From Nemertoderma westbladi (Eukaryota; Animalia; Xenacoelomorpha), in contig JAUCBJ010008896.1 in assembly GCA_032718475.1 (NCBI GenBank), forward strand, positions 186,001-250,000: 64,000 nucleotides of DNA. Direction: 5' to 3'. Below the pieces are notes generated by a model, which saw only the letters and a program-made list of their open reading frames with translations, was not told the origin of the DNA and ran no database searches. Numbering within the stretch: position 1 is the stretch's first letter; every line of letters begins with the position of its first letter. Shown one piece after another: positions 38,455 to 48,789 of this stretch. The position numbers and the translations under genes were made by a program.

Positions 38455-38742
38455 ATGGAGTACTTTATTTGCCCCTATGATGCCACGCACCGGATTCATT
38501 CGGAGAAATACGTCAAACATCTAAGAAAATGCCGCAAGAACTTTCCTGGCCAAAAAATGGTACAGTGTCCCTTTGAAGTTGCGCATAGCTTTAGAGAAGC
38601 CGAAAGGGAACATCATCTACAATTTTGTGAATACAGAAATAGGAGCTCCATTTTTGAGAAATTAAAAGAAGAGAAAAAAGTGGAGAAGAAAGGAGAAGAA
38701 ATTGAATGTCCGGCGGCATGGGGAGAAGAGGTGTGGGATTGA
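38455..38742 (+). CDS. GTSF1-like: GTSF1/Asterix-like protein, copy 1 (element E)
   Basis: Two CHHC (U11-48K-type) fingers, CPYDATH-x9-HLRKC and CPFEVAH-x9-HLQFC, joined by an RKNFP linker; acidic tail CPAAWGEEVWD. Confidence 0.92.
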   Translation: MEYFICPYDATHRIHSEKYVKHLRKCRKNFPGQKMVQCPFEVAHSFREAEREHHLQFCEYRNRSSIFEKLKEEKKVEKKGEEIECPAAWGEEVWD

Positions 38743-40265
38743 TGTGATGATGCGATTCTCCGCACCCTAGTATAAATTGTTATGTAATTATTATTGGTGT
38801 ATAAATTGTATGTACTTGGCGATTAATAATTGGTGCAGCCATGTATATTGTATTATTGTTCCTATTGTATTGCATATTTCATCTGCTGTAGTACAATCTA
38901 TTCAACTCGCGTCCCTATCTGATTGATTTATGTCAAATTAAATTGCCTTTGGCAACATTATTTGATACAAATCGATTGATTAAACAATTAATTAATTGTT
39001 TAATCGACCAATTAATTAATTGTTTAATTAATTAATGACCTACTTAACACCCAAGGTGTGAAGTTGGACCAAACTGTCGCCGAGGATGGCAAACCATTAC
39101 TACTTATAGGGTATCTCGTCTTCTCATTGTGCAGCCACCCAAGCACTACCATGGCAGTAGTGTGTCTCCACTATGTTGGGTATAGTTTCCATCAAGTAGG
39201 CTGTGGCTCTTACTCCTAATCTTGCAGCTTATATGCTTTCTTAAGTATCTGTTTCCCCTTGACTAACAGTGGGGATGCTAGGCCTAAGGGATCGTATATC
39301 ATGCTATGTACAATACATAGCCCCTCTTTGTGTGGATCTCCGTGCCCTCCTGGCTCAGTTGGTACTGGAACTCGTCTGTCTCCCGGTTCCACACGATCCC
39401 CAGCGCCTTCTGCTGAGACTCCACTCTCTTGTCCACCATGTCCTGTCCCTTGGCTGTCATGGGGTTGTCCATGGTCGACTCTGGCTGCCTGTCCTCTATG
39501 GCTTTCATAAACTCCTCTGAGCTGGACTGAAACTTGGTCAGGTTAAATCCGGATCCTTTCAGGATGTCGCGAACCTCGCGCCCTGTAATAATTTCTTTAA
39601 CCGTATTTCCAGATTCCATCCCGTCGTCTACATAGAAGCCGCGTCGAATAATATCGATCGCTTTGAGCAGGGGGGCCCATATCGAGCGGGGCCCAAAACA
39701 TAAATTACCCTTTCAGGAAAATACGTGGGCCAGTTTGGCCCTTTCTCAGTCCCCGAATAATCTGAGGAGCAAGACTAATCCCTTTGAATCTTGTATGTCA
39801 ACGGTAGGTGGGGATTGCGCGAATTGTAAATTATTTAAACCTCCAGCTTCGTTATTATGTAAGATTGGAAACCTTAGGTTTACATCTTACGCGCCAGCAT
39901 TAACCCCAAATCACACATAGGCCAACTACAACCTTGGGCCATATGAGGTTAGCTGAATGTGTGACACACTATTACCACTACTGTATCACTACTATAAACC
40001 CTATTACAGTACCAGAGCTACTGTAGTAGAGCTTGAAACTTTTTGAAGTAGGTTAGATCATGGAAGTTATGAATATGTTATGATTGATTAAGTTACGAGG
40101 TGGAGTGGGAAGGACTCTTATTGGTTAATAAAAGTCTTTAAGTTCATTACAATTTTCCTCACCCATTATTATATTTAATTAAGATGTTTATAACTTTTTA
40201 TTCTTTTTGATAGTAATTCTTATCCTGCTTATTATTTTTATAAATATTTTCTGATTCACTTGAAA

Positions 40266-40587
40266 ATGGACGGGTTTATTGTTGATTTTCAATACCATGT
40301 ACTCAACGACTCATTTTATTCCGTAATATTTAAAGAATTTATGGTTTATGATTGAAGATTGATTGAAGAATGAACTTAGAATAACTGCGCAACTACTGGA
40401 AATATTTGGAATAAATAAGAAATTCATTAACCCTAAAGCAGATTGTCATTTCCACATTAATGCTAACTGTCCTTTTCACATTGACACTAGGGATGGTTGT
40501 ATGAATTATTGTTCTGTCAAGCTAACTGTAGGGTTTGCAAATTATATTCTTAGATGGAAGGTGGATTCTTTTCTACAAAGAGTATAG
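40266..40587 (+). pseudogene. DEDD/Maelstrom-like small ORF (disrupted)
   Basis: MDGFIVDFQYHVLNDSFYSVIFKEFMVYD* then, in another frame, CPFHIDTRDGCMNYCSVKLTVGFANYI. Homologous N-terminus at 61260 on minus. Confidence 0.45.
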
Positions 40588-40930
40588 GATAAAGCTCTAT
40601 TATTGTGAGGGCATCAAGGCATCAACTTAGTACCGCACCTCACTCCCTAATAAGGGAGTGAGGCAAGTCTCTTGTCATGTTTGCCTAACTTTGTGCCTCA
40701 CTATACCATGCACAAACCTCACTTAATAAGCGATAACCTCCCATATATAAATTTCAATTATTAACATTAATCTTTAAACATTAAATTTGAACTATTAATA
40801 ATGTTCCATCTTCTGATATATATTTACTGAGATTTATATTTGTAAGTGAATCCCTAGCTAAACAAACTGAAAATTTTGAAAAAATATAGCTGTAGACATT
40901 TAAAAACATAATACAGTTTTCTTTCATAAA

Positions 40931-46900: not shown

Positions 46901-47450
46901 CACTCCCTCACTCCCTCACTCCCTCACTCCCTCACTCCCTCACTCCCTCACTCCCTCACTCCCTCACTCCCTCACTCCCTCACTCCCTCACTCCCTCACT
47001 CCCTCACTCCCTCACTCCCTCACTCCCTCACTCCCTCACTCCCTCACTCCCTCACTCCCTCACTCCCTCACTCCCTCACTCCCTCACTCCCTCACTCCCT
47101 CACTCCCTCACTCCCTCACTCCCTCACTCCCTCACTCCCTCACTCCCTCACTCCCTCACTCCCTCACTCCCTCACTCCCTCACTCCCTCACTCCCTCACT
47201 CCCTCACTCCCTCACTCCCTCACTCCCTCACTCCCTCACTCCCTCACTCCCTCACTCCCTCACTCCCTCACTCCCTCACTCCCTCACTCCCTCACTCCCT
47301 CACTCCCTCACTCCCTCACTCCCTCACTCCCTCACTCCCTCACTCCCTCACTCCCTCTCTCCCTCACTCCCTCCCTCACTCCCTCACCCCCTCACTCCCT
47401 CACTCCCTCACTCCTTCACTCCCTCACCCCCTCACTCACTCACTCACTCC
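43990..47450 (+). repeat. Compound (CTCA)n/(CTCACTCC)n satellite with (CT)n and (TCAA)n tracts
   Basis: Two blocks, 43990-46050 and 46478-47450, separated by a LINE-like 3' end with a (TCAA)n tract at 46331-46477. Confidence 0.95.
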
Positions 47451-48525
47451 TATTAAAACACTTCTTATTAGTGAATGTTTTCGCCCTAACCGGGCTACTT
47501 CAGACTATAATGCAGTATTAGGAATGTATATAGTTAAAATTATTGCATCCCACCACCAAATCAATATTCCCTCTCTTTTATAATATTGGGTTCTGTCATA
47601 AACTAATAAGGGTACGTAAATAGCATAAATGGAGAGAAATAGAAATATATATACAGTAGTTTAACTAGAACTATCATTATTAAATAAGGAACAGAAACAT
47701 CATTAAATGAAAATAAAGTAAATACCAGATATAGACTAGTTAGTTAGGTTATACAGTAGGCTTTAGAGATAGCATGGTTACTTCCAACGTATTGTGCACA
47801 AATACAAAACAGAAACCTCCGGATGGTGAAAAACGCAGAGTACAACGGCATTAATAGTAATAGATCTATGCGCAAATAGACAAAAACACAATAAAAATAT
47901 ACTTATAATGTGTACAGTAGGGTGAGAAAACGGTTTATGGTAAGGTTATTAAATGTCAAAAAATTGAAAAATTAATTCAATGATACAGTATATATTGTCC
48001 AATTGGATTGACAACCAAAAATATAGAATACAATAAACAAATTATAAGACAGCATGATACACTACCTACTAATTGTTGGTGCTGGCGTACATAGCAGACT
48101 CAATATTCACAAAGAGAACTATAATCAGTACAGTGATTTACTGAGGTACCATTGACAGTTAAAATTTCGCGGTCTGAGGAACGCCATGTAAAACAAAAAA
48201 ATTAATATTTTTTACATTAATGCACATCCCTGAACTATCACAAAAATACAAAGACAATAATAATAGTGCGGTTTATACGTTGTGGTAAAAGGCAAATATC
48301 GAAATCGAGAAATGTTACCCTTACAACAAAAAGCAAGTATCGAAATATAATGTGTATCGAAATCCCATTATACTGTTAGTGTGTTGTACAAACAATCCTT
48401 ATGGCGAAAGGTTAATATTGAAGACGAAATATATAATGTGTTTAAGGGTATATGCGCTATACAGTACACGGTATTAAATAGGGTTTAGAATAATAGGGTC
48501 TAATCAATCCATTCCAAACTAATGA

Positions 48526-48789
48526 TCAGCCCCACACCTCTTCTCCCCATGCCGCTGGCCGTTTAATCTCTTCTTCTTTCGAATTTTCGAAAAGGGAACT
48601 CCTATTCCTATACTCGCAATATTTTATGTGGTGTTCCCTTTCGGCTTCTCTGAAGCTGTGTGCATTTTCAAATGGGCATTGTACCATTTTTTTGCTAGGA
48701 AAGTTCTTCCGACACTTTCTTATATGTTTCACATATTTCTCTGAAAGAATCCTATGTGTGGCATCGTATGGGCATATAAGATAATCCAT
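48526..48789 (-). CDS. GTSF1-like: GTSF1/Asterix-like protein, copy 2 (element C)
   Basis: CPYDATH..HIRKC and CPFENAH..HIKYC fingers; tail PAAWGEEVWG; intact 87-aa ORF. Confidence 0.92.
   Translation of the reverse strand: MDYLICPYDATHRILSEKYVKHIRKCRKNFPSKKMVQCPFENAHSFREAEREHHIKYCEYRNRSSLFENSKEEEIKRPAAWGEEVWG

Follow-up and report, generated by a model that had tools for sequence, protein, structure and literature searches.

We analyzed a window of 64,000 nucleotides of repeat-rich animal DNA from Nemertoderma westbladi (contig JAUCBJ010008896.1), in which three short genes resembling the PIWI-interacting RNA (piRNA) cofactor GTSF1 lie in a mobile element with Maverick-type ends, here called element B, and in a relative nested within it, element A. 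Copy 1 (38455..38742, forward strand) encodes a protein of 95 amino acids (aa) with two CHHC zinc fingers and an acidic Trp tail (PF05253, E = 3e-8). Copy 2 (48526..48789, reverse strand) encodes 87 aa with 82% identity to copy 1 (PF05253, E = 7e-13). Copy 3 (49203..49535, reverse strand; 110 aa; PF05253, E = 3e-12), with 44% identity to copy 1, lies in tandem upstream of copy 2; it is intact and stands just beyond the range (38455..48789) named by an earlier, sequence-only reading of this DNA. None of the three copies has an intron, and each contains two CHHC stretches that score over the curated cut-off of PF05253. The eight zinc ligands of the two fingers (C6, H12, H22, C26, C38, H44, H54, and C58) are unchanged across all three copies, and the tail motif W-x-E-E-x-W is invariant, reading WGEEVW in copies 1 and 2. 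For the latter pair, the sequence-only reading had claimed that ligands and tail were retained and that the sole indel, of 8 codons, was in frame and in the linker; the alignment confirmed all of this. A 26-bp inverted remnant of the first codons of copy 3 lies between copies 2 and 3 (49018-49043, forward strand).

The closest solved relative of the copies is GTSF1, rather than U11-48K or TRM13. A profile of the three copies matched mouse GTSF1 (6x46; E = 1e-13) and the GTSF1 chain 9nhb_E (E = 1e-12) far better than U11-48K (E = 0.004). No viral structure matched at E ≤ 0.001. The structure predicted for copy 1 had a mean confidence (pLDDT) of 79 overall and ~90 over the fingers, Foldseek ranked 6x46 and 9nhc_E first and second with this model as the query, and the Atlas comparison agreed with a GTSF1 identity. 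A profile search for homologues found 1,069 proteins at E ≤ 0.001, of which 150 were listed; homologue counts below refer to these 150. A word-indexed search with copy 1 as the query returned no match. Named relatives among the matches listed are animal GTSF1s, and the nearest homologues among them have ~40 to 45% identity over the fingers.

The window proteins are distinguished by where they end. The acidic Trp motif is present in 104 listed homologues and absent from 43, the remaining 3 being without two fingers by pattern. Beyond the motif, the tail of those 104 proteins has a median length of 161 aa, with only 4 of them ending within 5 residues, and all three window proteins stop right after it. 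In copy 1, W94 aligns with the nearly invariant Trp of the family and is preceded by a second Trp; the protein ends ahead of any later aromatic residue (mouse W98, W107, and W112). At the sites equivalent to the mouse RNA-contact residues R26, R29, K36, and K39, copy 1 has H/K/K/K, copy 2 has L/K/K/K, and copy 3 has A/R/I/K. Basic residues are retained at two of these four sites in copy 3. The R26-equivalent site is variable across the listed homologues, and the site occupied by Ile in copy 3 is Lys or Arg in 145 of the 150. Overall, the copies share with GTSF1/Asterix (mouse 6x46 and the SIWI-piRNA-target-GTSF1-Maelstrom structures 9nhb and 9nhc) the tandem CHHC fingers, a partly retained basic surface on finger 1, and an acidic linker with a conserved Trp, but they differ in being 87 to 110 aa long, ending at the Trp motif, lacking introns, and being located in a mobile element.

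Element B is 21.5 kb long, and copies 2 and 3 lie inside it, in tandem beside its right end. The left end (28964..29037, forward strand) carries the motif AGTAGT with one mismatch and is interrupted by a BEL/Pao insertion once 74 bp have been read, while the right terminal repeat (49950..50486, reverse strand) ends in ACTACT. Over 74 bp, the two ends match as inverted repeats except at 2 positions, of which one falls in the left motif. The sequence CAGTAC, present just before the left end (28958-28963) and just after the right (50487-50492), is a target duplication of 6 bp. Flanking the element are two halves of the reverse transcriptase of one long interspersed nuclear element (LINE); the right half matches RVT_1, and when the two halves are aligned to another LINE of the window, they meet in exact register at the residues that are duplicated. 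The left flank alone is not significant (142 of 1,000 shuffles; no BLASTP match) and counts only through its register with the right. An inner remnant of a left terminal repeat, which may be that of B or of another family member, was located at 39683..39861 (forward strand) as an inverted homologue of 49950-50161, with 20 differences in 174 columns plus indels. Mavericks have (AGT)2//(ACT)2 ends with a 6-bp target duplication (PMC8097293). B is like Mavericks/Polintons (adintoviruses) in these ends, its terminal inverted repeats, and its target duplication (PMC8097293, PMC8502044), as well as in carrying intronless genes under purifying selection and host-derived accessory genes, which in their case are Bcl2, IAP, and MAEL.

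Unlike Mavericks/Polintons, B has no gene for PolB, integrase, ATPase, protease, or capsid between its ends, according to a domain scan of 74 open reading frames (ORFs) of the window, picked by hand and mostly taken from 357 stop-to-stop frames. The longest ATG-initiated ORF within B that is neither retroelement nor repeat is 150 aa. With genes for polymerase, integrase, and capsid all missing between its ends, B does not belong among autonomous Polintons; it is a nonautonomous derivative with Maverick-type ends. The interior of B contains the BEL/Pao insertion, a LINE, a 3.6-kb microsatellite, and the nested relative A. The microsatellite, a (TCAC/TCCC)n tract at 43850-47460, shows extreme strand skew. 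The BEL/Pao insert carries extra ORFs past its integrase (30416-32979, reverse strand), of 462 aa (no Pfam match), 314 aa (weak zinc-knuckle matches), and 125 aa; the start of the 462-aa ORF presumably resembles a 3′-5′ exonuclease, a likeness that Pfam does not support.

Copy 1 adjoins the end of element A. The terminal part of A (37938..39104, forward strand) consists of a sub-terminal segment, a locally inverted module holding promoter and copy 1, and the end motif ACTACT at 39104, and it is 9 to 10% diverged from the right end of B. Copies 1 and 2 thus lie in two copies of the element, A being nested in B. A single end of A was found. Part of A is bounded by an inverted pair of (GGCTGT/GGTTGT)n microsatellites (35348-35880 and 37601-37811).

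Related modules were also recovered in DNA contigs from three sequencing runs (two samples, the best of which may be the source of the window; coverage in run X5 was patchy), in a comparison that covered copy 1 and the left half of the element. In these contigs, the promoter and GTSF1 module is joined to the sub-terminal segment in the orientation seen in B, with a different order in further copies. Some contigs show 33 differences from copy 1 over 187 letters, or 38 over 222, and do not have the deletion of copy 2, so further GTSF1 variants exist; one variant looks broken, with 36 letters replaced by 4. Summed contig depth over the terminal segment (38841-39126) was far above that of the interior in all three runs, as many short end-bearing elements would give, although contig depth does not equal copy number.

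The three copies have a promoter in common. Each copy is preceded, ~100 to 120 bases before its ATG, by an 18-bp TATA motif that the window contains in these three places and nowhere else (0 expected): at 38341-38358 within the promoter and 5′ leader of copy 1 (38278..38454, forward strand), at 48894-48911 within those of copy 2 (48790..49019, reverse strand), and at 49656-49673 within the promoter of copy 3 (49536..49808, reverse strand), which runs into the sub-terminal sequence of the element. The leaders of copies 1 and 2 are 11% diverged and homologous up to the ATG, with the same promoter-ATG junction, and their 3′ flanks are unrelated. The copy 2 leader is 28% diverged from the region upstream of copy 3, and the tandem unit formed by these two copies takes in sequence extending into the end of the element.

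Strong purifying selection on the protein accompanied the divergence of copies 1 to 3, a conclusion supported by both counting and codon models. The sequence-only reading had counted by hand 13 synonymous and 5 nonsynonymous differences over the first 32 codons of copies 1 and 2, and the Nei-Gojobori method returned the same figures (13.0 and 5.0). Over all 87 aligned codons, it gave 32.5 synonymous and 17.5 nonsynonymous differences (pS = 0.635, pN = 0.083) and a dN/dS ratio of 0.063 (P = 1.6e-15; Fisher’s test). A pairwise codon model (GY94, F3x4) gave a dN/dS ratio (ω) of 0.066 for the same pair (dS = 1.36, dN = 0.091; P = 1.6e-13 in a likelihood ratio test against ω = 1), with grid values from 0.03 to 0.12 falling within the 95% interval. 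Comparisons of copy 3 with copies 1 and 2 gave ω of 0.04 to 0.06 with saturated dS, and ω was therefore far below 1 in pairwise comparisons of all three copies, as the claim of purifying selection implied. The 10 changes within the first 62 residues sit at sites that vary among the listed homologues (P = 0.006), a test independent of synonymous rates; only 1 of 20 conserved sites in the finger region is changed, from L to I. CpG decay was rejected as the source of the excess of synonymous changes: of the 49 differences, 11 are of CpG type, and both copies have a GC content of 0.41 at third codon positions. Because dS is 10 times the divergence of the flanks, escape from piRNAs by synonymous recoding was also considered, but it was unneeded as an explanation, dS of a neighbouring gene also being well above that of the flanks. 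Of the proposal that the protein functioned while on the mobile element, purifying selection (ω of ~0.07) and the location in an element with recognizable ends and target duplication both stood; that selection acted during residence on the element is likely, if unproven.

A reasonably probable reading of these data is that GTSF1 was captured once and then served the element lineage as a set of accessory genes, whose small products would likely compete with host GTSF1 for PIWI. The capture step itself is the better supported part: judging from the sequence, a single capture followed by tandem duplication on the element is probable, being favoured because the copies have promoter and truncation in common and because, in copies 1 and 2, the promoter joins the ATG at the same point. 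In a FastTree phylogeny with the 150 listed homologues, in which the host’s own paralogs are absent, the three copies group together weakly (0.865). GTSF1 binds PIWI through aromatic residues past the fingers and licenses slicing (bioRxiv 10.1101/2021.05.04.442675; PMC9539491), and four basic residues are required for PIWI activation in mouse (bioRxiv 10.1101/2021.05.04.442675). An element-encoded GTSF1 reduced to fingers and Trp motif would likely compete for the site of host GTSF1 on PIWI. If translated, the product has a somewhat better than even chance of binding PIWI through the Trp motif. A net effect of weaker silencing of the element, as expected of a decoy, rather than help to silencing, is plausible at a little under even odds. 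Copy 3, which keeps the Trp motif and has Ile at the Lys/Arg site, is on sequence grounds the best candidate decoy; copies 1 and 2 could be working activators.

Several observations weigh against this reading. Copies 1 and 2 hold three of the four RNA-contact residues, as expected of an activator. Noncoding homology between A and B is only 9 to 12% diverged compared to a dS of ~1.4 for GTSF1, which would fit an origin of copies 1 and 2 before A and B separated, or else flanks that have been constrained or homogenized. IQ-TREE analysis with 48 of the homologues and 70 columns, again with the host’s own paralogs absent, supported the three-copy grouping weakly (67/69). No autonomous partner carrying GTSF1 was found, and scans of viral and metagenome contigs yielded no relatives of the genes or ends, two loci from these scans being chance phage matches. 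The chance that three short ORFs stay open is ~0.22 at 1.35% divergence, the value for the two ends of B, and 0.03 at 3%, probabilities that rest on an assumed indel rate. Because chance alone could have kept the frames open at the estimated age, the selection signal tells of function during the spread of the element and not today, and the open frames are no proof of present-day function.

The sequence-only reading had also drawn on the decay of neighbouring genes, and the neighbours are indeed broken. A zinc-finger/acidic ORF of B (40931..41575, forward strand) is split by a stop near 41120, its homologue in A (36290-37359, reverse strand) is frameshifted near 37000-37359, and an ORF of B at 40269..40600 (forward strand) is broken as well. 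The breaks in B look private to the window copy, as the run contigs differ from the window there. The contrast with GTSF1 is a weak one, however: the zinc-finger/acidic gene itself has an ω of 0.195 between B and A (P = 0.002; 80 codons, with codons at the breaks dropped), so it too had been an element gene under selection. Its dS was 0.81 by maximum likelihood and 0.19 to 0.69 by counting, depending on the stretch.

The strongest rival, though an unlikely one, is that the host has a family of short intronless GTSF1 paralogs, that elements took two or three of these at the DNA level, and that the low dN/dS reflects selection in the host before capture. The host GTSF1 genes lie outside the sequences compared, and separate captures of host paralogs may account for a GTSF1 dS (1.4) far above the flank divergence (0.10 to 0.12). 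Short GTSF1s ending at the Trp motif do occur in hosts (e.g., P0075 from Manduca), several paralogs are common in animals (PMC9539491), and the tree does not force a single origin. However, separate captures would each need to have landed at the same terminal position: copies 1 and 2 meet the promoter at the same point, and the tandem unit of copies 2 and 3 extends into the end of the element. Introns or host flanks were not seen around any copy.

A less probable alternative, which we regard as quite unlikely, is that the copies are working GTSF1 activators of benefit to the element lineage or the host, for instance through stronger PIWI activity against rival transposons, in which case selection may now act at the level of the host. 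Both fingers, the Trp motif, and three of four basic residues in copies 1 and 2 would suit such a role, as would three open frames among broken neighbours. At the estimated age, however, three open frames carry no statistical weight, the run contigs include the broken-looking variant, and an element would presumably gain little by strengthening its own silencer.

It is very improbable that the captured sequence acts at the RNA level, as a source of piRNAs that target host GTSF1 transcripts. Repeated precedent for such a route comes from TART and other telomeric elements of Drosophila (PMC13534243), and, like B, they are mobile elements with sequence from piRNA-pathway genes that has been read as counter-defence (PMC7785250; PMC13534243). 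The TART fragments (nxf2, piwi, and aub) are short and noncoding and act through piRNAs, whereas B carries whole ORFs conserved as protein on a DNA element. The RNA route favours nucleotide identity, with fragments of 140 to 235 bp, and fails near 80% identity (PMC13534243); here, the protein is kept while 63% of synonymous sites have changed. Least probable of all is that the fingers were repurposed for a PIWI-unrelated RNA-binding job of the element, since, even though finger 1 of GTSF1 binds RNA (bioRxiv 10.1101/2021.05.04.442675) and nematode GTSF-1 partners an RNA polymerase rather than PIWI (PMC13650160), all three copies retain, beyond a variable linker, the acidic Trp tail to which PIWI binding has been mapped in fly and mouse.

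Other relics bear on a broader form of the reading of the copies as competitors on PIWI. The broken ORF at 40269, whose motifs make it a candidate adintovirus MAEL-type gene, has a homologue in a relic ORF at 61260 (reverse strand; tblastx E = 5e-7); this unconfirmed Maelstrom homology drew no Pfam match for the 40269 pieces and no PDB match for the homologue at 61260. A MAEL gene is annotated in adintoviruses (PMC8502044; two bioRxiv papers), and Maelstrom joins GTSF1 on PIWI that has engaged its target (De et al. 2025, as cited elsewhere); both points also count in favour of the competitor reading. We tentatively raise the idea, which we consider doubtful, that one family of Polinton type mimics both proteins that accompany PIWI on its target, with the MAEL-like gene known from adintoviruses and a newly captured, truncated GTSF1 amplified into diverged paralogs that each suit a different PIWI of the host, and that these would jam piRNA silencing at the protein level.

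Further relic pieces outside B (~25700-28600, 51800-53300, and 61300-61700) are presumably remains of Polinton PolB, integrase, and protease genes, assignments that searches did not confirm; the PolB-like relic outside the ends of B matched PF03175 at E = 0.05 only. The further LINE that is split by element B itself interrupts this PolB-like relic. Just downstream of the relic, at 53278-53490 (forward strand), is a TBP match (PF00352; E = 2e-4, 21.5 bits versus a cut-off of 22.9). Beside the integrase-like relic, tandem small ORFs at 58534-59482 and 59886-60660 have upstream regions that are 81% identical and ends with acidic Trp motifs, with no Pfam match. Elsewhere in the window, we noted two intronless MARVEL-like membrane ORFs (8963-9532 and 15513-16073, reverse strand; PF01284, below the cut-off) near long hairpins at 8363-8499, 8644-8898, and 16404-16591; a Gypsy-type long terminal repeat element at 53517-58414, with 106-bp terminal repeats that are 98% identical and a degraded relative near 4400-5900; and long open LINE reverse-transcriptase ORFs of 671 aa (16716-18731, forward strand) and 566 aa (42170-43870, reverse strand).

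Host-derived accessory genes are already known on Polintons (PMC8502044), and GTSF1 as one of them appears to be new. Full-text literature searches, with bioRxiv supplements and most subscription papers outside their scope, returned no report of an element-borne GTSF1, and the part of the adintovirus paper’s supplement that was covered (PMC8502044) contains no mention of GTSF. The competitor reading is easily testable, with three genes of ~100 codons and an established in vitro PIWI slicing assay. As natural truncations, the copies outline the minimal GTSF1; in copy 3, the surface for RNA contact is uncoupled from the tail that binds PIWI. To our knowledge, transposons that attack the piRNA pathway do so through RNA from captured fragments. 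An entire piRNA cofactor that a virus-like element maintains as a protein would qualify as a candidate protein suppressor of piRNA silencing in animals.

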